IMG/VR virus record: IMGVR_UViG_3300025362_000477
Reading direction: 5' to 3' (one strand)
Source of the DNA: a virus
Taxonomy: Duplodnaviria; Caudoviricetes
Length of the DNA stretch: 64,000 nt
Below, piece by piece: positions 4,493 through 30,587 of this stretch; the first letter of the stretch is position 1; every line of letters starts with the position of its first letter. The translations under genes were made by a program, and so were the position numbers. Below the pieces are notes generated by a model. It worked only from the letters and a program-made list of their open reading frames with translations. It did no database searches and was not told where the DNA came from.

Positions 4493-5008
4493 TTAACCTC
4501 TATTAATTTTAATTGTATCGGAAAATATCTCGAGCAGTAATTCTTTCATTTTATCCTTAGATAATTCTATTCGTTCATTTATAGAATTATCAATAGCAGG
4601 TATAACTTCATTCTTTAATTCTATTCTTAATTGATCTTCCACTATTTCTTGAATTTTATCTACTAAATTAGTAGATAGCCATTCATCCAGAGCTTTTATA
4701 TTCTGTTTTTGAACGCTATCAAGGATAACAGCTGCTATTCGACGAGTATCATCACTTTCAGTAATTGCTTCATTCTTCTCTGGATCATATTCAATTGTCA
4801 GACCATATAACTTAGTACGACATGGTAGATATTCAGTATCTACTTTCCCTTCTGTTTTCGCAGATTCATTCCTTAGACATGTTGCAATTTTTGATAGTTT
4901 CTTATCTCCGAATACTCTTTTATAATTTTCTTTTATAACTGATAATGGATATAATGCACCGACCATCATCAAACTACATATTTGATCTATTAATTTAATT
5001 TCACTCAT
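4493..5008 (-). CDS. Hypothetical protein
   Basis: 171-aa ORF tightly packed upstream of rpoC. Confidence 0.7.
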   Translation of the reverse strand: MSEIKLIDQICSLMMVGALYPLSVIKENYKRVFGDKKLSKIATCLRNESAKTEGKVDTEYLPCRTKLYGLTIEYDPEKNEAITESDDTRRIAAVILDSVQKQNIKALDEWLSTNLVDKIQEIVEDQLRIELKNEVIPAIDNSINERIELSKDKMKELLLEIFSDTIKINRG

Positions 5009-5612
5009 CGATAATCTCCATTAGAGGTTGTAATTCATCACGATTTAAATATGATTGAGAAATATTGAATTGTGATAACATCACTTCTAAAAGTAATATA
5101 TTTTCATAATTCAATGGTAAATCTAAAAAGCGAGAATCTAAACAGAATTGGTTACTAACATTATTTAAATTTGGATGGCAACCTTCACAATATACTTCTT
5201 GAATATTCAAGTTTTTCAAAATCCTATATTTTGAAATTCCATATCCTAAATCTTTAATTTTTTTTTGTCGAATATCATTTAAAATAGAAACTCTATTATT
5301 ATTTTGAATCATCGAGCATGATATTAATTTATCACATACTAAAAAATCATCTTCAATATAATAATGATCCTTATCTAAAATTTCTCTTAAACCTTCATTA
5401 AATGATGTAGTTGATTCCAATTTCTTTAATTCATAAGAACATTCTATCCTCCATAATTCTGCCATTAACCATCTAGGATTTTCATGATATATTCCATCAT
5501 ATAAAATTGCATCTTCTATATTTGATATAATATCAGGAACTTCTTTATTCAAATCAATAGAATCAAGTGATACTTTAAATTTTTTACATATTCTTATAAT
5601 ATCCAATTTCAT
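5001..5612 (-). CDS. Putative prokaryotic E2/UBC-like protein
   Basis: GCHPNLNNVSNQFCLD (HPN...C) followed by LEVMLSQFNISQSY, paralleling the same motif in 13354..15222; next to a ThiF gene. Confidence 0.45.
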   Translation of the reverse strand: MKLDIIRICKKFKVSLDSIDLNKEVPDIISNIEDAILYDGIYHENPRWLMAELWRIECSYELKKLESTTSFNEGLREILDKDHYYIEDDFLVCDKLISCSMIQNNNRVSILNDIRQKKIKDLGYGISKYRILKNLNIQEVYCEGCHPNLNNVSNQFCLDSRFLDLPLNYENILLLEVMLSQFNISQSYLNRDELQPLMEIIDE

Positions 5613-5863
5613 GCAGCACCTGTCACTGGATGGATCTCCATTTTTATATCTTTTAATGATGGATCATACGTTACAGCAACTCTAGAATGAGGAAACTCTT
5701 TTGCCATTTTCAAAATTGTATCTTTTAATTTATCCATATCTACAAAATCAATCTCCTTTTGAATATTTAATATAGGAATTTCTGCTATAATATGCTTCTC
5801 CTTAAAAACCTCCAAATCTCTTTCTAATAATTCATAATTCAAAATGCTTTTTTGACTTGTCAT
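5609..5863 (-). CDS. Small protein ending in -TGAA; candidate ubiquitin-like protein
   Basis: 84 aa, sits between a ThiF-like and an E2-like gene with overlapping stop and start codons; C-terminus MEIHPVTGAA. Confidence 0.35.
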   Translation of the reverse strand: MTSQKSILNYELLERDLEVFKEKHIIAEIPILNIQKEIDFVDMDKLKDTILKMAKEFPHSRVAVTYDPSLKDIKMEIHPVTGAA

Positions 5864-6404
5864 ATAAATTTTCCCTTTTCAATATATGTATGTTATTTGT
5901 TTTCAAATTATAAAATCTAAAATCTTTATATAGATATTGATCATTCTTTAGATATTCCAAAACTTTAAATGCCGCAGATTCAATATAATATGGATTCTTT
6001 GATATAATATAACGATGATAATCTAATGCATCTTGTTTCGACATACTATCGATGTATAACATATAACCATCTAACGATATTCTAATATCAGCATTTATAT
6101 CGGGACTTTTACAATCACGACAATCAATAACAAAACCATTTCCTTCTATTGGACGTTCAATCTTTTCCATGAATACTTCTACTTCCATTGAAGGATTTTC
6201 ATATTTACATTGAAATCTCACTATTTTTATTTTTGGGATGCTACCCTCTTCTTTAAGAAAAGGATATGATGGATTTTCTGTGAACCGACTAACTACATCA
6301 AAATCATATATTTTTAATTGACTAATCAATTTTGATTTTGCTAATGATATAGCTAGTACTGATCCAACAGTTCCACAACCCACAATTAAAGGTTGATCTA
6401 TCAT
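5832..6404 (-). CDS. ThiF/MoeB/E1-like adenylation protein (short, divergent)
   Basis: LIVGCGTVGSVLAISLA Gly-rich loop, YDFDVV, VIDCRD. Confidence 0.75.
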   Translation of the reverse strand: MIDQPLIVGCGTVGSVLAISLAKSKLISQLKIYDFDVVSRFTENPSYPFLKEEGSIPKIKIVRFQCKYENPSMEVEVFMEKIERPIEGNGFVIDCRDCKSPDINADIRISLDGYMLYIDSMSKQDALDYHRYIISKNPYYIESAAFKVLEYLKNDQYLYKDFRFYNLKTNNIHILKRENLYDKSKKHFEL

Positions 6405-7281: not shown

Positions 7282-7498
7282 TTTCCTTCTTAATAAGGAT
7301 TTTATGTTTCACCGATAATGTATTATCAGCATATCCAATCGTAGTTTTTCCATCCTTTTGTTCAATTTCCACACCCATAGAATCAATACCTTTTGTTAAG
7401 GTTCCACTACATTCAGGAGTGCCTAGAGTTAACTTAATTTCTGTATCTCTACAAAAACTAGCAACTGTTTTAGCTCCACGTTTTATATATTTTTTCAT
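7259..7498 (-). CDS. Small beta-rich hypothetical protein (possibly Sm/LSm-like)
   Basis: IKLTL...SGTLTKGIDSMGVEIE strand pattern; weak resemblance only. Confidence 0.4.
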   Translation of the reverse strand: MKKYIKRGAKTVASFCRDTEIKLTLGTPECSGTLTKGIDSMGVEIEQKDGKTTIGYADNTLSVKHKILIKKENDDSENS

Positions 7499-10107
7499 AT
7501 TTTAAATATCCTATCAGGTTCCATATCTTCAGCTGTATTGTGAGTGATAAGTGTGACATTTTTATCTCTAGATATTAATTTTGATAGTTGACAAAATATC
7601 TGTCTATTATCTGCATCTAAAGAATCCAATACTTCATCATAAAATAGATTATGTATTCTCTTATTATATAATCTCTCTGTTAATGATCTTAATGCTTCCA
7701 TACATGCCAAATCAACCATTCTCTTTTCACCACCGGAAAGCATCTTGTGACTATCTGTTCCTTTAATATTATGTAAAACTTTAACTTTAAACTTATCTCG
7801 AATATCCCCACTCTTAGTCTCACTGAGAGTATCAAATGAAACCGTGAATATACCAGGTGCAATTTTCTCTAAAGCTTCTGCCACTGATTCATTCATATGA
7901 GGAATTGCCATATCTATCAACATACTCTTAATTCCAGTATCTGAAAATGACTTTTTCCAAAATAATAAGATTTCTAGTTCCCTTTCGATCAAACCCCTTT
8001 TCGCTATTTCATCTATATGTTTTTGTTCAATAAGTAGTTTCTCAGATTTCTCCACTTCAATTCGAGTATCATCAATATCTTCTTCATTTTCAATGTTGAT
8101 TATATTCGTTTTGACATTATCTAATTCGTACCCCTTACCATTTTTTGAATCAACTAAGATATCATATTGAATTTTTGCATCTGATTCGATCTTAATTTGA
8201 GATTCAACTACACTGAATCTAGCAGAATCGACTTCAGATTTAGATTTTGAAGAATTAGTAATATCAGTCTGAAGTTGTATATACTTTTTATTATGTTCGG
8301 ATTGTTTATTTTGTCTTTCTAAATCAAACCTATTAGCTATTTCAGTTTCATCTATATCACATTTAGATTGAATGTCAGCTGATCTAGTATCAATATCAAG
8401 CTGCCTAGTTCTATAAACTTCAGTCTCGTTATCCATATTAGATTTGAGTTCATTAATCTTAACTTCACTGATCCTTCTATATTCAACAATCTCGTTATTA
8501 AGTAATTCGAGTTTTCTCTGAAATTCTTCAGCTCTCTTATTTTTCTTAATTTTGACATCATTAATTTTATCATCATAATCAGATCGGGCTTTATCCTTCA
8601 CCTCAGTACATTCTTTAAATTCAGCTTTCAGAACAACCATCTTATCTTCAATAGACTTAAATTGAACATTAAGGTCTATTATGATAGCTTTACCTTTAGA
8701 TATATCTTTCTTAATGATCTCAATATCTTCATCACTTGTAAATGGTCTCAAACATTTACTACATGTTGGAGATTCACCTAATAAAGATTCTTCATCTTTT
8801 GTCACTGATAACTGTTTTTCATCAATGTTAGTTTTTATAGATGCAGCATCACTTTTTAATTCAGATGCATTATCTCTTAGATCCTGAGCATTCTTCTCAA
8901 TGATGCCAAGTCTAGTCTCTTTCTCATGCTCAAGTGTAGATGTTGAAAATTCAACTTCTAATTGATTGATAGAGAAATTAACTTGTTGTATCTCTTTCTG
9001 TTTCTCTCTTTCAAAGTCAGAACAATCTTTGGTTATTGGAGTAGTATCATATTTTTTTGATATCTCCGAAATCTTCAAATAATTATCAGCCTTGTCATTT
9101 CTGAGCTTTTCTAATTTAACTTCACATGAATCTTTGACTACCTGTATCTCTTCTCGGCATCTATTAATAAAGTCATTATTTATTACTACTATCTCAGCCG
9201 ACTTTTTATTATCTGATTTATCCAAATCATCAAATAATGTTTTAGAGACCTGATCTAATTTTTGCCGCAATATAATAATTTCAGTTTTCAATTGATCTAA
9301 TTTGTTGGAATCAAATCCCATTTCATTAATCTGAATGGCAATCAATTGTATTTCATTTTCTAATCGTGTTTTAGTTAGTTTATGACTATCTAAACTATCT
9401 TGTTTCTTCTTCTCAGCTAATTCTTTATCAGATATTAATCGTTCAATACTTTGAGATTTCCATTCAATTTCTTGCTTAATTTTATCAATAGAAATAGTCA
9501 CATCTTGAATATCTTTCTTCAATACACCTTCTACTTCAAAAGCATTCTTATAATAAGTATTGTACACCTTAGTCTGTAATACTGAATCAAAAATCTCTTT
9601 CTGTTGAGTATTAGTCAGGGAGGTGAAGAAGTTCTTAACTTGTTGGCTAAAGTTAATCACGTTATGATAAATGTCTTTTGGATAAAGAATCTTTTCAATT
9701 AATTTATATGTGTCAGCTTTTGTTTTCCCGGTTATCGGAATATCATTCTTGAATAAGAAGAATTGATTATGAAATTTCTTATGTTCATAATACAGTTCAG
9801 TTCTATATTCATCAGTGGTATTGGTATCTGAATCAACTACTCGGAAATAAGTTTTAATCTCTAAATCTTTTCCCGTCTTTCGATTTACCATATCTGCAAT
9901 TGTAATTTTATCACCAGGAGGAGCACCATCATCCCCATATAACCCCATCGAAACGGCTTTTGGGATAGTAGATTTTCCTGCTCCATTCTTACCTTGGATC
10001 ACAGTAAAACTATCTATCGGGAAGTCCATTTCCATTTCATAATGGCAACGACAATTCTTCATCGTGATATTGTATATATAAATATCTTGCATTTTATATC
10101 CTCTCAA
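7495..10107 (-). CDS. sbcC: Rad50/SbcC-like ABC ATPase (T4 gp46-like)
   Basis: Walker A GKNGAGKST, long coiled coil with CSKC zinc hook, signature LSGGEKR, Walker B LFYDEVLDSLD. Confidence 0.95.
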   Translation of the reverse strand: MRGYKMQDIYIYNITMKNCRCHYEMEMDFPIDSFTVIQGKNGAGKSTIPKAVSMGLYGDDGAPPGDKITIADMVNRKTGKDLEIKTYFRVVDSDTNTTDEYRTELYYEHKKFHNQFFLFKNDIPITGKTKADTYKLIEKILYPKDIYHNVINFSQQVKNFFTSLTNTQQKEIFDSVLQTKVYNTYYKNAFEVEGVLKKDIQDVTISIDKIKQEIEWKSQSIERLISDKELAEKKKQDSLDSHKLTKTRLENEIQLIAIQINEMGFDSNKLDQLKTEIIILRQKLDQVSKTLFDDLDKSDNKKSAEIVVINNDFINRCREEIQVVKDSCEVKLEKLRNDKADNYLKISEISKKYDTTPITKDCSDFEREKQKEIQQVNFSINQLEVEFSTSTLEHEKETRLGIIEKNAQDLRDNASELKSDAASIKTNIDEKQLSVTKDEESLLGESPTCSKCLRPFTSDEDIEIIKKDISKGKAIIIDLNVQFKSIEDKMVVLKAEFKECTEVKDKARSDYDDKINDVKIKKNKRAEEFQRKLELLNNEIVEYRRISEVKINELKSNMDNETEVYRTRQLDIDTRSADIQSKCDIDETEIANRFDLERQNKQSEHNKKYIQLQTDITNSSKSKSEVDSARFSVVESQIKIESDAKIQYDILVDSKNGKGYELDNVKTNIINIENEEDIDDTRIEVEKSEKLLIEQKHIDEIAKRGLIERELEILLFWKKSFSDTGIKSMLIDMAIPHMNESVAEALEKIAPGIFTVSFDTLSETKSGDIRDKFKVKVLHNIKGTDSHKMLSGGEKRMVDLACMEALRSLTERLYNKRIHNLFYDEVLDSLDADNRQIFCQLSKLISRDKNVTLITHNTAEDMEPDRIFKI

Positions 10108-10508
10108 TCAACTAGTTTACACTCAAATTCATACCCATCATCATCAACATAAGTAATCTTCAATTTTTCAACAACACCTATATTTTTACCATGACCATCA
10201 ATAATATCATTAGGAATCAATCGAATAACATCATCTCTTAAAGTCAGTCCATTTGTAGGTTCCCAATATCTTCGAGCAACAACCTCATCTATAAAATCTC
10301 CCAGATTTGTCGAACCACATGTCAACTCTTCTATATTAGATATAAAGTTAAGGAATCCTTCAGGATAGTATTCATCTCCATCACGCTGGATAGAAGCTTT
10401 CCATTCGAAATAATATTCTCTATAACCATGATACCCAGAAAGTATTATAAAATAAGAATCTCGGGATCTTTCAATAACCCTTTCTCTTGTGATGCTAATC
10501 TTTTTCAT
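10104..10508 (-). CDS. Hypothetical protein between the sbcD-like and sbcC-like genes
   Basis: 134-aa ORF with 4-nt overlaps on both sides. Confidence 0.65.
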   Translation of the reverse strand: MKKISITRERVIERSRDSYFIILSGYHGYREYYFEWKASIQRDGDEYYPEGFLNFISNIEELTCGSTNLGDFIDEVVARRYWEPTNGLTLRDDVIRLIPNDIIDGHGKNIGVVEKLKITYVDDDGYEFECKLVD

Positions 10509-11539
10509 TCAGTAACCCCCTTAGTAAGAATATCATATTTAGCCAGAAAGTCTAAATACTCAACACGATTTTCTTCTGGAATTTCTTTGATTTCCATATA
10601 CTTCTTTAATTGCTCCTCTCGAGTCTGAGTGATTTCAATACCTCGATTGGTAATATCAATCTCAACTGTCTCAACAACAAGTACCCCATCAGAAACTTCA
10701 TCTTTCAATTTCACACCAGACTTATTCTTGATCCGAACTAGATGTCCCTTATTTCTGGCAATTTCAGCCTTCTGTAGAATATCAGCTTTCTGTTCTATGG
10801 TTTCAATAGTATATTCTTTAAATTCTCGGAATCCAGTAATTGGAATCTGCTCAACCTCTAAAGTTTCAGTATCATAGATAAGAAACATCTTATGTTCATT
10901 TTTATCTCCCCAATCTCGATGATATATACTTCCAGCATAATAAATTCTCACATTATCATTTTTTAAATATTGAGGTGAATGATAATGCCCCAGAAGAGCA
11001 AGTTTGAATTTTTTCGATATATCATTCATTGTTATTTTATCAACACCACTCAATCCGGAAGCTAAATGAGCTTCATTCAATCCTAGATGAGAAATCAATA
11101 TATCAGTCGGTTCACAATCAATAATCTCATCCATAAAATTTTTAGTATGTGGGATATAAGTAATATTCCCAATAACCAATGGGCGATATGGAATACATTG
11201 CACATTTGGATATGCATCAAAAACAGAAATCGCGCTCTTCTGATTTTCTCCAACTGATGAATTATCATGATTTCCCGATATTATAGTAAAATTGATATCT
11301 GCATGTCTAATTAAAAATTCAGAAAATTGATTTTGTGCTACTGTATAAATAATAGACTTATCATTAATCAAATCACCCAAAATATCAATATCAATTATAT
11401 GTCTTTTCCGACATTCGCTAATTATAAATTCAAGGGTTTTCATGATCAGCCCCAACCGAATAGGTAAATTCAAATCATCTAACAAATCCGATTCAAATCC
11501 ACTAAGGTGGATATCACCCACTGCAGCTCTCTTTTTCAT
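10505..11539 (-). CDS. sbcD: Mre11/SbcD-like nuclease (T4 gp47-like)
   Basis: GDIH, LGDL, GNHD, ISHLG and GHYH metallophosphoesterase motifs; adjacent to the Rad50-like gene. Confidence 0.93.
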   Translation of the reverse strand: MKKRAAVGDIHLSGFESDLLDDLNLPIRLGLIMKTLEFIISECRKRHIIDIDILGDLINDKSIIYTVAQNQFSEFLIRHADINFTIISGNHDNSSVGENQKSAISVFDAYPNVQCIPYRPLVIGNITYIPHTKNFMDEIIDCEPTDILISHLGLNEAHLASGLSGVDKITMNDISKKFKLALLGHYHSPQYLKNDNVRIYYAGSIYHRDWGDKNEHKMFLIYDTETLEVEQIPITGFREFKEYTIETIEQKADILQKAEIARNKGHLVRIKNKSGVKLKDEVSDGVLVVETVEIDITNRGIEITQTREEQLKKYMEIKEIPEENRVEYLDFLAKYDILTKGVTE

Positions 11540-11648: not shown

Positions 11649-12599
11649 TTATTCCTCTTCTACTTCTATTTCTTTTTGTTTTCTCGATTCAAGTTTTTCA
11701 ACAACTTCTTCTTGGTCACATGATTCTAATTCACCTATATCAAAAATCTCCTCTACATCATCATCTGTAAGAATCATATTACATGAATCACATGCATAGG
11801 GGAATGTATCAATAATATTAGCTCCACCACAATGACGGCAAAGGAATATTCTATCTTCATCATCTTCTCGATCAAACCCAAAAGAATCTTGGGTGACATC
11901 TCGATCTTCAAAAGTTAGAATCCCATCTTCATCTCTGTCTCCTTCTGTGAGAAGTTTACCAAGACGATAATCTTTAGCTGTTGAAGAACTTCCACCCATA
12001 CTCTTTTTCTTAATCTTCATTAAGATAGTATCTGCATCTTCAATATTAAATACCGGATATTGAACATTGATAGTGAGAGGTAATTGAATTCTGATATCAC
12101 CGCAAGTAACGTTAATAATACCTAATATGATATTATTCCCTTCATACAAAATAGAAAATTCAAAATTTCTATTTATATGCATTGCATCAACACCACTGAA
12201 TTGTCTACATCCAGTTGGATGTCGATGTACTACTCCATTATAATCATCACCTGGAGGATCTTCCTCAAAATCAATTGCTCCTCCAGATACTTTCTGTTGA
12301 GGGATAAAATGTGAATCCGGATCTACATTTAATACTCCTCCCTCAAATTTCCCCTTTAGAAAAACACCAAACTCCAATCCACTCATTCCTTGTAATGCCA
12401 TATGTCGTTCAATGCTTCTCATAAAGATAACAATTCTCTGTGGCACATTACATACAATAGGAAGAGTAATTGGAACTAATGAATCTAAAGTCCAATGATC
12501 ACTCCCAGTAGTTGAAGAACTTTGAAGTGATTCTTCAGACACATCTTTCAGTTCAACATCTCCATCATCATCTACGTCAAAACCTAATTCTTTTATCAT
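11649..12599 (-). CDS. JAB/JAMM (MPN+) metallo-isopeptidase with a C-terminal zinc ribbon
   Basis: LEFGVFL (catalytic Glu), GVVHRHPTGCRQFSGVD (HxH-x7-S-x2-D), C-terminal CRHC...CDSC. Confidence 0.82.
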   Translation of the reverse strand: MIKELGFDVDDDGDVELKDVSEESLQSSSTTGSDHWTLDSLVPITLPIVCNVPQRIVIFMRSIERHMALQGMSGLEFGVFLKGKFEGGVLNVDPDSHFIPQQKVSGGAIDFEEDPPGDDYNGVVHRHPTGCRQFSGVDAMHINRNFEFSILYEGNNIILGIINVTCGDIRIQLPLTINVQYPVFNIEDADTILMKIKKKSMGGSSSTAKDYRLGKLLTEGDRDEDGILTFEDRDVTQDSFGFDREDDEDRIFLCRHCGGANIIDTFPYACDSCNMILTDDDVEEIFDIGELESCDQEEVVEKLESRKQKEIEVEEE

Positions 12600-13357
12600 T
12601 CGGATGCATTCCCTTCTAAATATTCTCGGTACAATGTAGCCACTATATCTCGAGTGTCTACTGTGAATGTTTTATTAATTCGACCTCTTAGATCGAAAGA
12701 TTCAATATTAGATATGTTATCCATACCAGGACGATTAAAATCCTCATCTAAGTCCTTCATAGCAACTGCATCAGTAACAACAATAGATGCAATCATTTGA
12801 GATGGTGCTATGAAAGAAGGAGTAAATGTGTAATTATTCGCTTCCCCCCACACAGCAGTATGTCTCGGATTCCCATCAATAGTCACTGATAAGCCATCAT
12901 AACCTACTTTATAATATTTACAATTAAACTGGTATAAATCTTCGTATACATCATCTCGACAATCTATGATTAACAGTTCATCTATTATCTCACCAATAGC
13001 ATGTCTATCAAAATTAATATCATTTTCTATACGAGATTTCATCATAGCTATTTGATTAGTACAAGTCTTATCTTTATATGTTATAACATCTACATTAGCC
13101 CTTCGTTCAAGAATCAGATATTTCAAAGCATCAACCTTTGGAAATCCAACATCACATAATCTGAATGGAGTCCTGTTAAGATTACTACTTTCTACTGAAT
13201 CTGGATCTATTAAATGAATTGTCTTAACTGTCCCACTCAATGCGAGATCTAAAGCAACCCAACTACCAATACCACCAACTCCAGCAATAACAGCATGTTG
13301 ATATGAATGAGTTCTAATATCTTCTTGCCGATTTTGAATTTCTGAATTTAAATTCAT
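12596..13357 (-). CDS. ThiF/E1-like activating enzyme
   Basis: VIAGVGGIGSWVA, IDPDSVESSNLNRTPF, PKVDAL, IIDCRDD. Confidence 0.92.
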   Translation of the reverse strand: MNLNSEIQNRQEDIRTHSYQHAVIAGVGGIGSWVALDLALSGTVKTIHLIDPDSVESSNLNRTPFRLCDVGFPKVDALKYLILERRANVDVITYKDKTCTNQIAMMKSRIENDINFDRHAIGEIIDELLIIDCRDDVYEDLYQFNCKYYKVGYDGLSVTIDGNPRHTAVWGEANNYTFTPSFIAPSQMIASIVVTDAVAMKDLDEDFNRPGMDNISNIESFDLRGRINKTFTVDTRDIVATLYREYLEGNASE

Positions 13358-15222
13358 TGTGTACCTCCAACTAAGTTAGTATCCCCTAACGAAAATGTCA
13401 TAGGAGCATATACTGGTGGTGGCGGAGGTGGAGTAAACACTAACTGCCGCTGTTCACCATTTTCATTAATTGTACTCAGATCATTAATTGATACTGATTC
13501 ATCCAATTCATATACAGAATCACCAAGAATAGCATCATCTTCCATATCATTAACCATATCATCAACAATATCATTCATTGAATAATTATCTCCTCTTAAT
13601 GGTTCCGTATTATTATGTGATGGGGATGTTTGAATCTCAGCTATGCTATCTCCATTATTATCATTTATTGTCACTATTCCCATTAGTTCGTTAACTTCTT
13701 CATCACTAATCTCTTCATCTTCATCATCATCTTCATCATCTCCAAGTTCTCTAATACTAGATGCATCACGGACTCGTTCAGCAATAGTTCGATCGTCAGT
13801 AGAAAATAATGACTCTTGGATTTCCGAAACGTCAAGTAAATGATCTCTTTTTTCGTTATGATAAGATGAATCATAATTGATCATGTCAAGCAACTCTTCT
13901 ACTCTAACTAATGATTCACCAAAATCAATATCAGCCTTTGTGAAATCAACAGATAGATTTCCCATACATACATCACTACCACTAACATTAGGATGGTCAC
14001 CCGTTGCTCTCATTTCCCCCTCTTGATTGATATATAATTTAGTTACGAGATAAGTTCTTTCTAATTCAGGAATTAGATATCTCTGATTCTTCCATACTAA
14101 ACTATCTGGTCTTATCTCAACTTCTTTACTCCACCACATTGAACTATCATCCCTACCATCGGCAAAACTAGGATCGCATGGCTCCCATCCAAACATTTCA
14201 AATTTTAAACCTATACGCATCCCTTTTGCGAATCCTCGTTTGAAAACATTTTTTTCTCGTTTACGTCTACTCGATATGAACGTAGATAAGATTCTGGAAT
14301 ATGAGTACTGATCATCAATACCAAATACAGTACCCTTAAATGCTGATTTTATTGATTCATCAATATATGAATCTACTCTAGCTTTAAATTCATCTAAGTC
14401 AGCATTCTCAGATGCATATCTATAAAATTGTCGATTATAACTATTATTATTAATCATTCGATTCATAGCTGATTGTTTTAATCGACCCCCTAGATCATTC
14501 TGGACTTCTCGTATATTCATATTAATAAATTGATCTAAAAATTTATGAAAACACATCAACAAATTTCTGAAACATTTTTTTACATCTTGATCATTATTCT
14601 GATTTAATATTTTTATTACTGCCTGCATCCTAAACATTAAAATTCCATTTGTTGTTGATACACCCAATAGGTAATTCTTATCGGAATAATAATAAAATTC
14701 ATTTATGCTATCTAAAATATTTGTCCGGTTTGATATACTCTCTTCTATCAATTTACGAACATCATTAAAATTTAACATATAGCCTTTAGCAGTTATCTTT
14801 CTTAAAACATTAATTCCATATTTTTTAGAAGCTATTCCATCAGTCCAATTTTTATTATATGAATTTGTCCAAAAATTTTCACTAGTATATTGACTATCTC
14901 GACTGCTATATAAACTATTATTAGATAAATTTCGAGGTGTGAAATCTGTAAATCGGATTGAAGAATAATGCCGTTCTTCATTGTTATCAACTAATGCTGA
15001 ATTAGTACCATTTCCTGAATCTGAAAATATTAATTTAGCTATCGGATTTATGGCTCCGTTACTGCTCATCTTATCAAAAGATATATTTGATTTCAAATCT
15101 TCAATTACTGGGTTTTCATCAAATATTTCTTTTAGTAATCTAATTAATCTATTCTGTGATTCAAATGATAATTTAGGGATTAATGAACATTGTGTAATAC
15201 GAAATCTATTTCTGTTAGACAT
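13354..15222 (-). CDS. Large protein with a putative E2/UBC-like domain and an acidic tail
   Basis: GDHPNVSGSDVCMG (HPN-x-C), LLDMINYDSSY; overlaps the ThiF start; D/E-rich and Pro-rich C-terminus. Confidence 0.55.
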   Translation of the reverse strand: MSNRNRFRITQCSLIPKLSFESQNRLIRLLKEIFDENPVIEDLKSNISFDKMSSNGAINPIAKLIFSDSGNGTNSALVDNNEERHYSSIRFTDFTPRNLSNNSLYSSRDSQYTSENFWTNSYNKNWTDGIASKKYGINVLRKITAKGYMLNFNDVRKLIEESISNRTNILDSINEFYYYSDKNYLLGVSTTNGILMFRMQAVIKILNQNNDQDVKKCFRNLLMCFHKFLDQFINMNIREVQNDLGGRLKQSAMNRMINNNSYNRQFYRYASENADLDEFKARVDSYIDESIKSAFKGTVFGIDDQYSYSRILSTFISSRRKREKNVFKRGFAKGMRIGLKFEMFGWEPCDPSFADGRDDSSMWWSKEVEIRPDSLVWKNQRYLIPELERTYLVTKLYINQEGEMRATGDHPNVSGSDVCMGNLSVDFTKADIDFGESLVRVEELLDMINYDSSYHNEKRDHLLDVSEIQESLFSTDDRTIAERVRDASSIRELGDDEDDDEDEEISDEEVNELMGIVTINDNNGDSIAEIQTSPSHNNTEPLRGDNYSMNDIVDDMVNDMEDDAILGDSVYELDESVSINDLSTINENGEQRQLVFTPPPPPPVYAPMTFSLGDTNLVGGTQ

Positions 15223-15247
15223 TACAACTCCAATTTAGTTTTAGGAA

Positions 15248-15280
15248 AATAGGGTGATAACGATATGCTATCACCCTATT
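15248..15280. terminator. Inverted repeat between the Ubl candidate and the E2-like gene
   Basis: aatagggtgata...tatcaccctatt, 12-bp arms. Confidence 0.45.
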
Positions 15281-15284
15281 GTAA

Positions 15285-15893
15285 TTAGGCAGCTTTGTTA
15301 TGCTTACGAATACTCAGAAACATCAGATGACCATCTTTAATCTCGACGTCTTTATCATTCGTTACTTTCTTATTCATTTTGATGTCATTCACTGTGAATG
15401 TTGTCATCTTATTATCAACTGCATATTTACGAATACATTTGATTACATCCTGTGATGTTTTAACCACATATTTCGGAGAGCCATTAATAACCATTAACTG
15501 CTCATCATTCTCAATGCGGATCTTACGACCATCAGGAGTTGTTACTTTCTTCATTGCCTTTTTCTTATGGCGAATATTAGAAACCCGATATCCAGCCATC
15601 TCTTTTTTAGATGCCTCTGGAAGTTCTCCCTTAGGTTTCTCGCCCTCGACAATAGTTGTCTTTGATTTATCATCTGCTTTCTTAACAGCTGTTTTGGCTT
15701 CACCCTTTGAATATAATGGGAATCTGCCAGATGAATTAACAATAACACTACCCGCTTTAACTGCTTCAGTTAGATCACTCATGATCTGTGCAGCTTTAGT
15801 ATATCCAATTGATTTAGCAAGTGCTGTTGCGCTCATACCATCTTTCTTTACGCCAGCTATGATCTTTTCCAACAATGTTTTCTTTGATGCCAT
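15285..15893 (-). CDS. N-terminal winged-helix domain plus candidate C-terminal ubiquitin-like (beta-grasp) domain ending in -NKAA
   Basis: MSATALAKSIG...GSVIVNSSGRFPLYS (wHTH pattern); C-terminal 70 aa show a strand-strand-helix-strand...strand pattern ending LSIRKHNKAA. Start taken at MASKK. Confidence 0.5.
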   Translation of the reverse strand: MASKKTLLEKIIAGVKKDGMSATALAKSIGYTKAAQIMSDLTEAVKAGSVIVNSSGRFPLYSKGEAKTAVKKADDKSKTTIVEGEKPKGELPEASKKEMAGYRVSNIRHKKKAMKKVTTPDGRKIRIENDEQLMVINGSPKYVVKTSQDVIKCIRKYAVDNKMTTFTVNDIKMNKKVTNDKDVEIKDGHLMFLSIRKHNKAA

Positions 15894-15894
15894 T

Positions 15895-16755
15895 TTAATG
15901 TTCCTCAACTTGTTTGTTTAATTTAAGTGGGATTATTTCTCCCGCTTCAGTTCCTAGTATATATGAATTACTATCGACTTTTGAAGTTGTGCTAGATGAT
16001 TGTTCATCTTCAACTTCTTTATCATTTATATAATCTGAAATTCTTTGATATTTAGCATCTCTATACTGACCAAATAATACTAAGGCAGTTTCATCATGCA
16101 ATAAATCATCAAATTCATCATCATCTATAATATCATATTCGTCGTCGTCATCTAACTCAAAATTTGAAATATCTAAATCATCCGTACTCGACTCAAATAT
16201 CTTATCTAACCCTTTATCTATTTTATCATCTATAGCTCTTGATCTTGTTAGGAGTGTATCTGAACACCCTTCTGCAAAAGATCTCCATTGTTTAAATTTT
16301 CCACCTGATTCTTTCTGATGTTTGGACGATAATTTAGTAATTGATTTTCTTAGGAAATTAAATAATTCAGATGCAGTTAATACATCTAAAGGATCCCCTA
16401 TAAAAATAATCTTCAATTCCGAATAAACATTTCCTTCTCTAGGTGTTCTCTTTATCAATGTCTTTGTTTGTGTTATTCTATTCACTGCCTTGATGAGATC
16501 CATCATCCACAGAGGAACAACATTTGCCTTAAATGATACACTTTCATATTCTTTAACTTCTAATAGATCAGAACTTCCTTCATTACCAGAATCCAATGCC
16601 AATACTTGACTCATTGATAGATGATGCTTTCTTAAAAGTTTCTGAGCCAATGCCATTGCATTAGCAGTTTCACCTATTGCCGCATTCGAACTTTCGTCAG
16701 CAACAGATAATAACTTCTGAATTTTCTGCAACACCGTATTATTTACATCGGTCAT
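15895..16755 (-). CDS. DUF2786-domain protein
   Basis: LQKIQKLLSVA...ETANAMALAQKLLRKHHLS N-terminus. Confidence 0.78.
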   Translation of the reverse strand: MTDVNNTVLQKIQKLLSVADESSNAAIGETANAMALAQKLLRKHHLSMSQVLALDSGNEGSSDLLEVKEYESVSFKANVVPLWMMDLIKAVNRITQTKTLIKRTPREGNVYSELKIIFIGDPLDVLTASELFNFLRKSITKLSSKHQKESGGKFKQWRSFAEGCSDTLLTRSRAIDDKIDKGLDKIFESSTDDLDISNFELDDDDEYDIIDDDEFDDLLHDETALVLFGQYRDAKYQRISDYINDKEVEDEQSSSTTSKVDSNSYILGTEAGEIIPLKLNKQVEEH

Positions 16756-16992: not shown

Positions 16993-17730
16993 TTAACTTA
17001 TAACCATTCCATATATAAATTGTTGTGTAACTTTATTCCATGGTATGATGGCAAACCCATGAATCCCCCAACCACTTCCCCAACTATTCTGAATATAAAC
17101 TCCAATTGAATCATATCCACAAACCAATACAGCATGACCGCCGAGTTGTGCTGGAAATTCTATATCACCAATTCTTCCTTTTTTATCAACTCGATTCCAT
17201 TCATCAGTAATCATAAATCCAGCAACAAATGTTGTATGGGTATGAATGCAGAACTTAATAGAATCAATACTCTTCTTAACAAACTGTAAATTCCCCTTTA
17301 TCAACTTTAGATTTATAGCAGCTGTTCCAGTATACTCCAAACTAGTACCTGGGTTATCATTCCCTTCTATTTTCTTTGCTTCTTTATATATTGCATCACC
17401 ATCCAATTGTTCTGGATAATGTTTTTCTTTCCAATTCTTCACCTCAATCATCCCAGCAGTCGAGAATCCAGCACAATGAGGTGTTGATAATTGATTACTT
17501 GTTTTTATACACATATCTCTAAAATCTAATTTTATTGGTGCTATAAAATTAGATGGACTAGTAAAACTATTTTTCGCTGTTGCTAATGGACGATTTAATA
17601 TTAATCCCCCACCCGAAAAATTAGATGATTTAATCGGTATGAATTTTTTAATTATGAATCCGAACACTGCAATCTCCTGTAAATATTTTGTTTGTTTTCC
17701 ACCATGGATTATAATCTTCAAAATTATCAT
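16993..17730 (-). CDS. Papain-like C1 cysteine peptidase (start uncertain)
   Basis: NQLSTPHCAGFS (Q..C), GGHAVLVCGYD, IQNSWGSGWG. Confidence 0.88.
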   Translation of the reverse strand: MIILKIIIHGGKQTKYLQEIAVFGFIIKKFIPIKSSNFSGGGLILNRPLATAKNSFTSPSNFIAPIKLDFRDMCIKTSNQLSTPHCAGFSTAGMIEVKNWKEKHYPEQLDGDAIYKEAKKIEGNDNPGTSLEYTGTAAINLKLIKGNLQFVKKSIDSIKFCIHTHTTFVAGFMITDEWNRVDKKGRIGDIEFPAQLGGHAVLVCGYDSIGVYIQNSWGSGWGIHGFAIIPWNKVTQQFIYGMVIS

Positions 17731-18685: not shown

Positions 18686-19291
18686 CTATTCTTTTTCTAT
18701 CTCTACAGTAACCTCTTCCATAACTACATGGTGCCAAGGACAATATTTTTTACCATCAGCTCCAGCTACATAATAATTGAATAACCATGGTTTATCTCTT
18801 GGTCTATCATTACATTTAGGGCATTTATAATTAATACCTGGTTCTGCCTTGATATGACCTTTCTTGATTAATGGTTCATCGCCTCTCAAACTATGAAAGT
18901 CACCATCACTCATTCGTCCAATACATGAATCATCGTCACCATAATCTTCACCTCCACCCTGATGGATAACATATGTATATTTTGGCCAACATGAATCCCA
19001 ATCATGATTCCATGATGTTGAAATTAATATGTCATCACCATCAATACAGATATAAGTATCATAGTTACATGATGGGAATACAACTCCAGCTTCGCCAGAT
19101 TGTACATCTGCTAAATTACATAATATTTTTAATCTATCATTTTTCTTCTGTGCCTCATCTGTCATCTTACCAGTTTCGTCATCAGACATAACCAGTTTAT
19201 GCATAGCTAATGCTACTGCTTCAATAGAGCTCCCTCTGATAATGAAGCTACTAGATGAGCTATTACTCACAAAACCTCTCCTATCTTTCAT
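18686..19291 (-). CDS. SNSSS-leader family protein 5 (C-terminal CxxC...CxxH zinc-binding region)
   Basis: Starts MKDRRGFVSNSSSSSFII. Confidence 0.8.
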   Translation of the reverse strand: MKDRRGFVSNSSSSSFIIRGSSIEAVALAMHKLVMSDDETGKMTDEAQKKNDRLKILCNLADVQSGEAGVVFPSCNYDTYICIDGDDILISTSWNHDWDSCWPKYTYVIHQGGGEDYGDDDSCIGRMSDGDFHSLRGDEPLIKKGHIKAEPGINYKCPKCNDRPRDKPWLFNYYVAGADGKKYCPWHHVVMEEVTVEIEKE

Positions 19292-27150: not shown

Positions 27151-28653
27151 CTACATTATCATTGTATTTTCTCGGCATTGAGTAAATGTCATATCTCTCA
27201 TTATATCACCATTATAAAATACATCTTCCAATATATCATCACCAGGTGTATCAAATGGGACAGTCATAAACTTATTACCAGACATATTATTTCGAATCAA
27301 CTTGAAACGACCACGTTTAGATGCTTTACTAATATCCAAAGGTTTCTTCCATACATCCTTCCATGTATCTTCTCCGATTTGACGGGCACTACATTTAAAC
27401 GCAAATCGCTGATCATCTCGATTAACTTTCTGTAACAGTCCACCACCACAACCGAATCCAGTATTCTGAGCTGCATATTCATTCATGGTAATTGTATTGT
27501 GGATTCCTCGCATACCATTATAATCAATACCATCACCCCATATTGATCCAACCTTTGGATTCAATACAAGATAATTCTTTGAGTTTCGACTAGTGCCAAA
27601 TACAGATTCAAGCATCTGATTAACTTCTAATGATACACTATCAGGATCTCCACTATCAGGACGAAAAACTAACTTTCCATCTCTAGCTAAAATTTCATCT
27701 TTAAGTTCACGAGCATACTGAAGAATGAATCTCTGATAATTATAACTATCAATCACACATGCTACAACACCAGTTGGATTTTCTCGAACCAAATTATGAA
27801 AAATATCCTTTTCACCTGATTCTCCATTCGCAGTCATGATACTATGTTCAGTAGCAATGATTGAATATCCAAGTCCGTCATATGAAGGCATGTTGTAATA
27901 TTTTCTGATATGCTTAAGAGCCGATACAGTATCAGTACCTAAGAAATTCAGAAGATGCCCAGAACCCTGATGAACGGATGATTCATAACTTGAAACACCC
28001 CTAGCGCCAAAATCATGTAACATATATGGTAATACAGCATCTATCATATTATCATCACAAGTTTTATCAAGGTAATGACGAATCATTTTCTTAATCTCGT
28101 AACTCAATGTTGCTGTAGTTGATGATGCCCATACTCGAGTTAATAATGTTTCAACATAATTAGTAAGAGAAGCACATATCGGACCACCATTATTCTTAAC
28201 AGTCATTAAGACATTTGACTTCTCAACTGGAAGACCTTCAGGGACAGCCCGAATAGTTAAAGGAAGCTTTCCACCCCACTCTTTAAGAATATGTTGCCAC
28301 ATTTCTTTATTGAATGTAGTGTGATTTCCAAAATGAGAAAAGAATAACTCATCAGCATCATCAATCAATTCTTGAGTAACAACTATACCAGTCAAGTATT
28401 TCTTAACGATATACTGCAGACCATAGAATATAGTGTTATTATATTTCGCTCCATTTCTAGATTCAAAATATGAATAAATTGATATCGTATCTCTTGGATA
28501 TAAAGGCCAATGCCCTACCTTGTAACTATCAACATCAGTAATAATACTATATGTATCCATCCCTCGATCAGTTACTATTTTATTGATTTCATCCAGTGAA
28601 AAATAATCACGCTTTCCATATAAATTAAACAATTCTTGTTTACAATCTATCAT
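27151..28653 (-). CDS. nadV: Nicotinamide phosphoribosyltransferase
   Basis: DSYKVGHW, LHDFGARG, ATEHS, VIDSY, RPDSGDP, GDGI, GGGLLQKVNRD. Confidence 0.95.
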   Translation of the reverse strand: MIDCKQELFNLYGKRDYFSLDEINKIVTDRGMDTYSIITDVDSYKVGHWPLYPRDTISIYSYFESRNGAKYNNTIFYGLQYIVKKYLTGIVVTQELIDDADELFFSHFGNHTTFNKEMWQHILKEWGGKLPLTIRAVPEGLPVEKSNVLMTVKNNGGPICASLTNYVETLLTRVWASSTTATLSYEIKKMIRHYLDKTCDDNMIDAVLPYMLHDFGARGVSSYESSVHQGSGHLLNFLGTDTVSALKHIRKYYNMPSYDGLGYSIIATEHSIMTANGESGEKDIFHNLVRENPTGVVACVIDSYNYQRFILQYARELKDEILARDGKLVFRPDSGDPDSVSLEVNQMLESVFGTSRNSKNYLVLNPKVGSIWGDGIDYNGMRGIHNTITMNEYAAQNTGFGCGGGLLQKVNRDDQRFAFKCSARQIGEDTWKDVWKKPLDISKASKRGRFKLIRNNMSGNKFMTVPFDTPGDDILEDVFYNGDIMRDMTFTQCRENTMIM

Positions 28654-29590
28654 TGATATTTCCTTTCTTTAATTCAATAGCAGTCCACCCTTTGGACTTA
28701 CCTCTTGTAACTTTTCGATTTTCTAATCCTGCATTTACTAACCCATTAAATGAACCCAAATTATTATCTCTACAAAAATTACCCAATCCAGCCATTACAA
28801 TAAATTCCGTATTATTTGGATCCAAAACTTTCCATTTTTTAGATTTTCCATTTTTGGAACCTTTATTACACCCATTTTTTAATAACGATTCTGAAATTTT
28901 TTTCTTTTCAACTTCAGATAACTTATGTCCAAACCTAGGATTTCTATCACCAGTTAAACTATTTCTAATTTTCTGTTTAGTTTCATTACTACAAATTCTA
29001 TTTTTATATTTTTTATTAAATTCTTCCACTGTCCATGATCTTATAGTATTCTTTAATTTTTTTGATTGTCTATCTCTTTGTTCTTTAGGAACAGTTTTTC
29101 CAGTCATCCAATTCTTGGATCCTTTATGAGAATCTGATTGTCGTTTTAAATATTCAGGCGATCTCACCCAATCAGATGCTGGATGATTTTTTCCTTTTAA
29201 TCCAAACATTGCATTTTTAGCACCACGATTATCAGGAGCAGTATCACCACCAGATGTCATATTTGTTAATGGGCCTGTTTTCAAATCAGACCTACCTATT
29301 TTTAATATAAGATCAATTTCTAGGTTTTTAGCATCATCTTTAAAGACATTTGTTACAATCTTAAATATAATTGGAGATTTCCCATTTTTCCAGATTTTTT
29401 GAATAGTATTTATTTTATGTTTATTTCCTTTAATAGTTGGGTATTTCCTAGCTTCATTTAGGTGGTCTAGATGTCTCTTGTTTTGACCATAACCAACATA
29501 AAATGGTTCATACTCATATTCTAAATCATAATATTTAAACGGACCCTTCTTCAGTGGATTTAAATAAATGTACGTAAAAAATTTCTTCAT
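28640..29590 (-). CDS. Second GIY-YIG (LEM-3-like) homing endonuclease, between the two NAD salvage genes
   Basis: FTYIYLNP...FYVGYG...RHLDHL, IGRSDLKTGPLTNMTSGGD, NUMOD3-like repeats. Confidence 0.82.
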   Translation of the reverse strand: MKKFFTYIYLNPLKKGPFKYYDLEYEYEPFYVGYGQNKRHLDHLNEARKYPTIKGNKHKINTIQKIWKNGKSPIIFKIVTNVFKDDAKNLEIDLILKIGRSDLKTGPLTNMTSGGDTAPDNRGAKNAMFGLKGKNHPASDWVRSPEYLKRQSDSHKGSKNWMTGKTVPKEQRDRQSKKLKNTIRSWTVEEFNKKYKNRICSNETKQKIRNSLTGDRNPRFGHKLSEVEKKKISESLLKNGCNKGSKNGKSKKWKVLDPNNTEFIVMAGLGNFCRDNNLGSFNGLVNAGLENRKVTRGKSKGWTAIELKKGNINDRL

Positions 29591-29642
29591 TTTATCTACC
29601 TCACTTTTAATTTATTCTAACGAAGTAGATAAAAGAATTAAC

Positions 29643-30587
29643 TTATATTTTACATTTTTTATTTTTTAAATGATGAATTAAATCATCCATCAAAACATGA
29701 TGTTCATCCACAAGATCTTTATGTGATATATTATCATAATCATCATCACAAAAATCACTAATTGAAAACCATCGGACTTCACATATATCATCACCGGGTT
29801 CCACTGGTCCATGCATATATGTACAAGTGAAAAATGTAGTCAATAGTTTGTCAATTTCTCCTTCATATCTCCAATCATCAACTCTATGACTACTAACATA
29901 TGTAATATCACCTATCGATATGCCACCAGCTTCTTCACGAACTTCGCGGGCTACAGTATGTTCCAAACACTTATCAGTTGGATCAACAAATCCACCAATG
30001 AATCGATATTTCTTTTCATGCGGTTTTCTTCCAAGAAGCAACTTCTTCCTATCATCCTTCAGAATAGCCGCATCAATAGTTGGCCATACTTTGGGGTATT
30101 GATTTGAAGCAGCCCATATCACACCTTCTCTGAATTGTGGTGAACATCTCACCTTTCTTGAGGCAGACCTTCTGAGTTCAGTTCCAGATATAGTCCGATC
30201 AGGAATCAATTCTACAGTTTCATGTTTCCCATCATAATGACTGATGAATGAATCACGGCTACCATACAATACAGCTGTCTGGTTTGGACTTACTATATCA
30301 TTAATCGAAGAATCAAGTATCTTAGACCATGCACTATCATCAACCATATCTTTAATATATAGAACAATTGCTTCTGGATATTCATCCAATATCATTTGTT
30401 TGCGTGCTTCAAAATCCAGTGGGTTCTTAAATGTAACCCGTGTTGGACTCAAACCCAAGAATATGATAACTTTATCATGTTCTTTCATGACTGTATCAAT
30501 CAAGTCAGTATGTGCTTCATGCAGATATGGTACTTGAAACCTAGCCACTATAACTCCTACGTCTCCCGTCGTCTTTGTTCTTTCCAT
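29643..30587 (-). CDS. nadM: Bifunctional NMN adenylyltransferase / Nudix (ADP-ribose pyrophosphatase), NadM-Nudix type
   Basis: ARFQVPYLHEAH, KNPLDFEAR, ISGTELR, IGGFVD...EHTVAREVREEAG Nudix box. Confidence 0.93.
   Translation of the reverse strand: MERTKTTGDVGVIVARFQVPYLHEAHTDLIDTVMKEHDKVIIFLGLSPTRVTFKNPLDFEARKQMILDEYPEAIVLYIKDMVDDSAWSKILDSSINDIVSPNQTAVLYGSRDSFISHYDGKHETVELIPDRTISGTELRRSASRKVRCSPQFREGVIWAASNQYPKVWPTIDAAILKDDRKKLLLGRKPHEKKYRFIGGFVDPTDKCLEHTVAREVREEAGGISIGDITYVSSHRVDDWRYEGEIDKLLTTFFTCTYMHGPVEPGDDICEVRWFSISDFCDDDYDNISHKDLVDEHHVLMDDLIHHLKNKKCKI

Follow-up and report, generated by a model that had tools for sequence, protein, structure and literature searches.

We analysed a stretch of 64,000 nucleotides (the window) of the IMG/VR virus record IMGVR_UViG_3300025362_000477 (Duplodnaviria; Caudoviricetes), and identified four open reading frames (ORFs) in one orientation, at 15893..11649 on the minus strand, that encode in order a candidate protein modifier, an E2-like protein, an E1-type adenylating enzyme and a JAB peptidase. 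We consider it probable, from sequence comparisons and structural models, that these genes form a phage-encoded, four-component ubiquitin-like (Ubl) conjugation system. A preliminary description of this locus had proposed an operon of this kind, with its last three genes joined by overlapping stop and start codons; the coordinates of the four co-oriented genes were confirmed, ATGA overlaps of stop and start were read directly at both the E2/E1 and the E1/JAB junctions, and the motifs that it had named (NKAA, HPNVSGSDVC, GVGGIG/SNLNR/DCRD and a full JAMM motif) are all present in the translations. Homologues with as little as ~30% identity keep each of these motifs with little or no variation, and their co-occurrence in one cassette is, as judged from sequence, far beyond chance. 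The genes and features of the cassette are as follows.

15285-15893, minus strand: candidate modifier gene, 202 residues (N-terminal winged helix, Lys-rich linker, C-terminal alpha/beta domain, NKAA and stop)
nt 15699-15893, minus strand: modifier winged helix, residues ~1-65 (VIA match to MarR/ArsR and Z-alpha domains, Z 8-9)
nt 15288-15596, minus strand: modifier C-terminal domain, residues ~100-202, ending in NKAA
15288..15299, minus strand: codons of the Asn-Lys-Ala-Ala tail, the proposed site of E1 adenylation and JAB cleavage (translation and conservation)
15248..15280, minus strand: 14-bp stem-loop followed by a short U-run, in the modifier/E2 spacer (-21.9 kcal/mol, z -4.9)
13354-15222, minus strand: E2-like protein gene, 622 residues (conserved N-terminal domain of ~300 residues, UBC core, acidic stretch, SLGDxNL motif)
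nt 13813-14301, minus strand: predicted UBC/E2 core, residues ~308-470 (family profile, AlphaFold2 (AF2) and VIA)
13966..13995, minus strand: E2 active-site motif HPNVSGSDVC, with Asn412 and the proposed catalytic Cys419 (translation)
12596-13357, minus strand: E1, ThiF/MoeB-type adenylating enzyme, 253 residues, with a single adenylation domain (Pfam ThiF 7.4e-18)
11649-12599, minus strand: JAB/JAMM metallopeptidase, 316 residues, with the JAMM core at residues 76-138 (nt 12186-12374)
nt 11781-11840, minus strand: JAB C-terminal CxxC...CxxC zinc ribbon, residues 254-273 (translation; present in the close clade)

The modifier gene opens with an ATG at 15893, one nucleotide past the stop codon of an upstream DUF2786/DUF7168 gene, and is preceded by a GAGGAA ribosome-binding site. 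Between it and the E2 gene lies a spacer of 62 nucleotides, which contains the perfect 14-bp hairpin and then, ahead of the E2 start codon at 15222, a GGAG site. None of 200 shuffled sequences was as stable as this stem-loop. In eight of nine related loci (L003, L005, L007, L008, L009, L012, L014 and L016) the corresponding spacer also contains a strong hairpin (-23 to -32 kcal/mol), often with a short U-run after the stem. The sequences of these hairpins differ, such that the structure is kept and the sequence is not. The presence of strong hairpins of unrelated sequence in 8/9 loci suggests that a conserved element serves to uncouple expression of the modifier from that of the enzymes, and the hairpin is probably a leaky terminator or a stabiliser that gives a high ratio of modifier to enzymes.

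Predicted E2, E1 and JAB enzymes

The domain layout of the E2-like protein is kept in an alignment of 17 homologues. Residues 300-470, used as the query of an exhaustive profile search (threshold E <= 1e-3), retrieved 136 clusters at 50% identity, in which the proteins are 350-800 residues long and carry the E2 domain in their C-terminal half. Among 146 members of the family the active-site motif is almost without variation, with 140/142 carrying the H, 142/142 the P, 139/142 the N and 141/141 the C. When a profile of 124 E2-domain sequences (A7) was searched against all PDB chain sequences, 175 were matched, the best of them UBE2C (E 2e-4), and all of the matches listed, the best 60 of the 175, were UBC-family E2 enzymes. 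The alignment with UBE2C spans the HPN motif, the catalytic cysteine, the crossover helix and the N.DS/P loop, and pairs the phage cysteine with the catalytic one. The A7 alignment was too diverse for a pattern search. Narrower profiles, made from the full protein or from the core of 15 close homologues, retrieved nothing relevant among PDB sequences, and the protein had no match in Pfam, PHROGs, PADLOC or NCBIfam; distant members of the family match Pfam UQ_con at 2e-4 to 8e-4, under the gathering score.

The AF2 model of the 622-residue protein has a mean predicted local distance difference test (pLDDT) score of 59.8, rising to ~80 over residues 340-470, where the topology is that of a long helix, a four-strand beta-meander, the HPN-Cys loop and then helices. 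With VIA-align, the model matched UBE2E1 (Z 4.9, over residues 321-465), 4ccg_A (an E2-E3 complex) and E2S at Z 4.6-4.9, where values of Z < 8 can arise by chance; the aligned length in these three rows is 113-117 residues, roughly double that of the helical-hairpin matches that dominate the list. A Foldseek search of the whole model against the PDB likewise put many E2 and UEV chains on top, all with E > 0.6. The E2 fold, which the preliminary description had called from sequence patterns, gains support from the A7 profile, which reaches UBC enzymes in the PDB with HPN and Cys aligned, and from the match of the model to UBE2E1, and we regard the prediction of a true UBC/E2 domain within this protein as sound.

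Outside the core, the C-terminal ~150 residues of the E2-like protein (13354-13800) contain a long acidic low-complexity stretch and then a conserved motif, F/L-S/A-L-G-D-x-N/D-L, which may be a docking peptide. No usable match was found in the ESM Atlas for the N-terminal 300 residues.

The E1 carries the motifs GVGGIG, SNLNR and DCRD. Its residues G26, G28 and G31 (GxGxxG), D51, N61, K74 and D132 are invariant in five orthologues, in which the only conserved cysteine is the one within DCRD. Together with the Pfam ThiF match, these invariant residues bear out the earlier assignment of an adenylating enzyme. PADLOC models of the Cap2 E1-E2 protein match it over the ThiF part only (7e-13), and it reaches the cut-off of no NCBIfam model, with ThiF/MoeB equivalogs scoring far below theirs. 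We predict that it is a minimal MoeB-like enzyme without a Cys domain.

For the JAB protein, the motif E76...H125-R-H127-x7-S135-x2-D138 has all five residues invariant in eight homologues, two of them distant. Seven of eight family members match Pfam Prok-JAB, below threshold (best 3.9e-4), and a narrow JAB profile searched against PDB sequences found only a zinc-ribbon resemblance to Spt4. These results support a divergent JAMM peptidase with a complete predicted catalytic site, in agreement with the original call. Overall, the enzymatic assignments of E1, E2 and JAB are well supported.

The candidate modifier and its Ala-Ala terminus

The C-terminal domain of the 202-residue protein is highly conserved in the alignment of relatives, and its last residues most of all: KHNKAA is invariant in 18/18 homologues, and NKAA is also kept in four further relatives, from loci with remotely similar E2 proteins, and in an IMG/VR relative. 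Thus NKAA is present in 23/23 relatives, down to ~33% identity; it is terminal in 16 and trailed by 1-18 variable residues in the other 7. Such an arrangement is known from BilA, in which a universally conserved terminal residue is followed by up to nine variable residues that are cut off by its JAB (PMC10557695), while in CBASS (cyclic oligonucleotide-based anti-phage signalling system) a terminal alanine has been proven to be a competent E1/E2 substrate (PMC10097602). Within the window, 2 of the 90 minus-strand ORFs end in Ala-Ala, where 0.155 would be expected, and each of the two adjoins an E1 gene and an HPN-Cys gene.

The preliminary description had called a beta-grasp fold for this domain and had proposed an AlphaFold check. 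The AF2 model is confident over residues 103-160 (pLDDT mostly 74-83), which form strands plus a helix, and leaves residues 167-202 unmodelled, such that the beta-grasp fold is unproven. The protein had no match in Pfam, PHROGs, PADLOC or NCBIfam, and a narrow profile searched against PDB sequences gave a winged-helix signal only. In the most remote related locus, a 76-residue protein in the modifier position can be aligned to the C-terminal domain except for one hairpin, which it lacks. A language model places it near ThiS, SAMP2 and Multi_ubiq clusters (scores 0.78-0.88), which we treat as a lead only, and it has one near-identical homologue and no others that we could find. A predicted complex of E1 with modifier residues 100-202 returned a score of 0.17 (mark 0.32), that is, no answer, and is used neither for nor against the proposal.

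We take the 202-residue protein to be the modifier because of its invariant NKAA with variable extensions, its 76-residue relative, and the rarity of Ala-Ala ends, which are found beside E1 and E2 genes. Both this predicted identity and the role of the Ala-Ala terminus as its reactive end, the latter in line with what had been proposed earlier, are strongly supported by these sequence patterns, and a beta-grasp fold for the C-terminal domain has only indirect support. The JAB had been expected to act as a deconjugase rather than a maturase. This fits the present phage, in which NKAA stands directly before the stop codon and no propeptide exists; in the family, however, the JAB probably also trims precursors, since seven relatives carry extensions after Ala-Ala.

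Distribution of related loci

The order modifier-E2-E1-JAB is kept at every related locus examined: eight close ones, one from IMG/VR and four distant ones. Wherever the gene upstream of E2 is visible, it is an NKAA-ending gene or the 76-residue stand-alone version. A synteny search, which the preliminary description had suggested, thus finds that the cassette recurs in uncultured phages. Its most remote form is a miniature cassette on a contig from hydrothermal sediment (L010 4735-7307), which encodes the 76-residue modifier, here ending in NEAKGF, a 364-residue E2 (Pfam UQ_con 2e-4), a 215-residue ThiF protein and a 191-residue JAB; Mre11/Rad50 genes are absent from this locus, and a radical SAM gene lies nearby.

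In some relatives, small RHH/RH3 genes and pairs with DUF7487/NUMOD3-type homing endonucleases are inserted between cassette genes, at the modifier/E2 and the JAB/Mre11 junctions (L005 4919-5975; L003 9591-10614; L005 9804-10746; L008 4477-5452). These insertions indicate that the cassette tolerates mobile elements at its junctions.

Among 50,697 GenBank phage records searched by megablast and tblastn, neither the cassette nor the E2 core had a relative, and the E1 matched only remote ThiF genes in crAss-like phages. The GTDB species genomes contained no relative and IMG/VR contained one related locus. The E2 family itself comprises at least 136 sequence clusters and is essentially unannotated. 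In the literature we found no paper describing such a phage system, and it is not mentioned in a survey of jumbo phages (PMC7824862); Iyer et al. (2006) reported from phages only Ubl and JAB, in tail clusters.

Genome setting, flanking genes and a second module

The IMG/VR virus record that holds the window is 141.5 kb long and is estimated by CheckV to be 44% complete; a 230-kb contig also encodes an identical copy of the 622-residue E2-like protein. The window has a GC content of ~32%, and nearly all of its genes are on the minus strand. It further encodes an RNA polymerase beta' subunit, Mre11/Rad50, NAD-salvage genes, homing endonucleases and a match to head-closure proteins, which together indicate a large phage. 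Near-identical DNA was found in several salt-lake metagenomes from 2017-2019, and in no RNA run. The following features flank the cassette or belong to a second, related module.

15895..16755, minus strand: DUF2786/DUF7168 protein gene, upstream flank (Pfam 3.7e-9 and 1.5e-7; phrog_421 8e-25)
10505-11539, minus strand: Mre11-like phosphoesterase gene, downstream flank (Pfam Metallophos 1.2e-6)
7495-10107, minus strand: Rad50/SbcC-like ATPase gene, downstream flank (Walker A, signature motif and CxxC hook in the translation)
7495..11539, minus strand: block of the Mre11 gene, a 134-residue ORF and the Rad50 gene
5001..6404, minus strand: second module, without JAB (E1b, 84-residue protein, E2b)
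5832-6404, minus strand: E1b, 190 residues (ThiF 1.2e-7; lacks the SNLNR arginine)
5609-5863, minus strand: small protein of 84 residues ending in PVTGAA
5001-5612, minus strand: E2b, 203 residues, HPN...C (hhalign against the E2 family: probability 95.4%, E 1.9e-8)

The viral setting beside Mre11/Rad50, which had been noted from the outset, was corroborated by the IMG/VR record, by Pfam matches and by the related loci. An Mre11-Rad50 pair lies downstream of the cassette in nearly all relatives, the homologous loci giving AAA_23 and SMC_N matches, and the DUF2786/DUF7168 gene lies upstream of the modifier gene in most of them.

The second module is conserved in a related phage (L021 1492-2937), in which the small protein ends in PVTDAA. 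Its E2b is, by sequence comparison, a genuine homologue of the long E2 family. An hhalign comparison of the 84-residue protein with the domain of the first modifier detected no similarity, and no second JAB was found within the window.

Three genes upstream of the modifier gene, we also noted a papain-like cysteine peptidase gene (16993-17730, minus strand; Pfam Peptidase_C1 1e-4), and a gene of similar size recurs upstream in related loci; it could encode a second, Cys-type deconjugase, or be unrelated. Elsewhere in the window, a homing endonuclease gene separates the NAD-salvage genes at 27151-30587, which encode a nicotinamide phosphoribosyltransferase (phrog_448, 3e-135) and a cytidylyltransferase/NUDIX fusion, and the protein at 18686-19291 starts with a serine-run leader (…SNSSSSSF…).

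Proposed mechanism and alternative explanations

We propose that the E1, probably as a MoeB/ThiF-like homodimer, would use ATP-Mg to adenylate the carboxylate of modifier Ala202, as its intact ThiF active site suggests. Because the E1 has no conserved cysteine outside DCRD, Cys419 of the E2 probably attacks the acyl-adenylate directly, forming a thioester. The E2 would then hand the modifier to a nucleophile on the target, probably a lysine amine in view of its classical core of HPN, Cys, crossover helix and N.DS, with its own N-terminal 300-residue domain and its conserved C-terminal motif as the likely target selectors. The JAB, given its complete JAMM site, would cut after Ala-Ala, trimming precursors with 1-18 extra residues in relatives and removing or recycling conjugates in all. 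An excess of modifier over the enzymes is probably maintained by the hairpin that follows the modifier gene. Owing to the winged helix of the modifier, a conjugated target would become covalently linked to a module that binds nucleic acids, and the fixed association of the cassette with Mre11-Rad50 suggests a connection with DNA replication, recombination or the biology of DNA ends.

Several observations weigh against a conjugation system of this kind. The individual structure matches of the E2 are weak (Foldseek E > 0.6; VIA Z ~4.9), the JAB never attains the Pfam gathering score, and the E1 lacks both a catalytic cysteine and CxxC zinc motifs, from which we would guess that the transfer step differs from that of canonical E1s. 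The C-terminal domain of the modifier has no match in Pfam, PDB sequences or the ESM Atlas, and AF2 places its residues 167-202 below pLDDT 50. The cassette includes no separate E3.

Of the explanations that we weighed against a conjugation system, the one with most to recommend it, although we consider it unlikely, accepts E1, E2 and JAB as real and makes the 202-residue protein a DNA-binding regulator or a target, with the true modifier elsewhere, for example the 84-residue protein or a host protein. The unproven beta-grasp fold would allow this, as would the 62-nucleotide hairpin spacer, which sets the modifier gene apart from the tightly coupled E2-E1-JAB trio. However, an NKAA gene or its 76-residue version precedes the E2 gene at each locus where this position can be seen, absolutely conserved last residues with variable extensions are the signature of an activated and processed C-terminus, and the second module has its own small Ala-Ala-ending protein.

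We think it very improbable that the chemistry stops at adenylation or is that of a sulfur carrier (as in ThiF-ThiS, MoeB-MoaD or MccB-like pairs), with the tail thiocarboxylated or nucleotidylated for the modification of a cofactor, nucleoside or peptide and with no protein conjugation. An E1 that is minimal and has no Cys domain is what sulfur-carrier systems use, its best NCBIfam matches are ThiF/MoeB models (far under their cut-offs), and the 76-residue relative has ThiS-like language-model neighbours; but an E2 with an invariant catalytic cysteine and a JAB are always present, the conserved neighbourhood includes no rhodanese, cysteine desulfurase or biosynthetic enzyme, and the terminus is Ala-Ala rather than Gly-Gly. 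There is similarly very little likelihood that Ala-Ala is a ClpXP-type (ssrA-like) degron governing the turnover of a winged-helix regulator, with E1, E2 and JAB functionally unrelated or degenerate. The C-terminal Ala-Ala of ssrA tags is indeed the element that ClpX recognises, whereas position -3 is Lys here and Leu in ssrA, extensions of 1-18 residues in 7/23 relatives would mask a C-terminal degron unless trimmed, and the catalytic motifs of E1, E2 and JAB are all under strong purifying selection. The degron and modifier readings are not mutually exclusive.

Returning to the proposed conjugation system, we offer one joint reading of the locus as a tentative suggestion, with the balance of probability still against it in its entirety. 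In this reading the Ubl pathway of a large phage would attach a winged helix (Z-alpha/MarR-like) through Ala-Ala to chosen phage or host proteins, tethering or marking them at DNA together with Mre11-Rad50; the second module, which lacks a JAB, would set a parallel and possibly irreversible mark; and the E2 could rank with the nearest relatives that eukaryotic E2s have outside the eukaryotes.

To our knowledge, all characterised prokaryotic Ubl-conjugation systems (Bil, CBASS Cap2/Cap3 and probably Bub) are host anti-phage defences, whereas the present locus would place a complete pathway on the side of the virus. Its novel traits would include a cargo-bearing modifier, an Ala-Ala reactive end, a minimal E1 without cysteine, a duplicated module, and an E2 with the classical HPN motif that is fused to a putative target selector of its own. 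Most bacterial E2-like proteins have lost the classical HPN-Cys core, and the present E2 family may bear on how E2 enzymes of the eukaryotic type originated. Tagging during infection might counter the defences of the host or else organise the DNA metabolism of the phage.

Comparison with known systems

Bil (bacterial ISG15-like, BilABCD; class 6d of Iyer et al. 2006) likewise has four separate components, a Ubl, an E2, a JAB deubiquitinase and an E1, and the phage modifier family shares with BilA the pattern of a conserved terminus with a variable tail, which in BilA is removed by the JAB (PMC10557695). In contrast, BilD is an E1 of ~500 residues with an inactive and an active adenylation domain and a mobile Cys domain (PMC10557695), while the phage E1 has 253 residues and one domain; the E2s of class 6d are without the classical His (PMC1779556), while the phage E2 has the full HPN within a 622-residue protein; and BilA ends in Gly, while the phage modifier ends in Ala-Ala, as in all relatives, and bears a winged helix. 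Bil is, moreover, a host-encoded anti-phage defence and the present cassette is phage-encoded. We rejected membership of Bil on the grounds that the E1 is not a two-domain protein with a Cys domain and the modifier has no reactive C-terminal Gly.

In CBASS, a functional cargo protein itself supplies the C-terminus, either Gly or Ala, by which it is conjugated, and the JAB reverses this (PMC10097602). The phage modifier resembles such a protein in carrying a cargo domain and ending in Ala, and the best PADLOC matches of the phage E1 are to Cap2. However, Cap2 is an E1-E2 fusion encoded beside a CD-NTase and an effector, and the phage E1 and E2 are separate genes. Assignment to type II CBASS Cap2/Cap3 was rejected, with E1 and E2 unfused, DUF2786, Mre11 and Rad50 genes as neighbours, and no CD-NTase or effector nearby.

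The PRTRC (TIGR03734-03742) and Bub (6E) systems are likewise cassettes carried by mobile elements, and each brings together an E1 of the ThiF type, an E2-like protein, a small modifier and a peptidase. PRTRC was rejected, with the TIGR03736 ThiF model scoring 17.8 bits against a cut-off of 144.75, no ParB, and no other PRTRC match for the four proteins. Bub uses oxyester chemistry, in which Ser replaces the catalytic Cys, and the serine protease BubE (PMC11601596), and was rejected in view of the invariant Cys of the phage E2 and the JAMM-type peptidase. A ThiS/MoaD sulfur-carrier system was also rejected, on the Ala-Ala rather than Gly-Gly end, the presence of E2 and JAB, and a neighbourhood without sulfur-transfer genes.

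Comparison with eukaryotic E2s (UBE2C, UBE2A, UBE2N and UBE2D) aligned the HPN motif, catalytic Cys, crossover helix and N.DS/P loop with those of the phage E2, at an overall identity of ~13% and with an HPN-Cys gap one residue shorter in the phage protein. The predicted topology of the phage core (helix, four-strand meander, helices) is also shared with these enzymes. Unlike in eukaryotic E2s, the phage core sits between a 300-residue N-terminal domain and an acidic tail.

Of the general features of prokaryotic Ubl cassettes (class 6 of Iyer et al. 2006), a ThiF E1 (GxGxxG, an Asn/Arg loop and a DxxD Mg site), a UBC-fold E2 with Cys, a JAMM peptidase and an invariant small-residue C-terminus are predicted in the phage cassette. 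On its sequence, the cassette would work like Bil and Cap2/Cap3, yet fits none of Bil, CBASS Cap2/Cap3, PRTRC and Bub.

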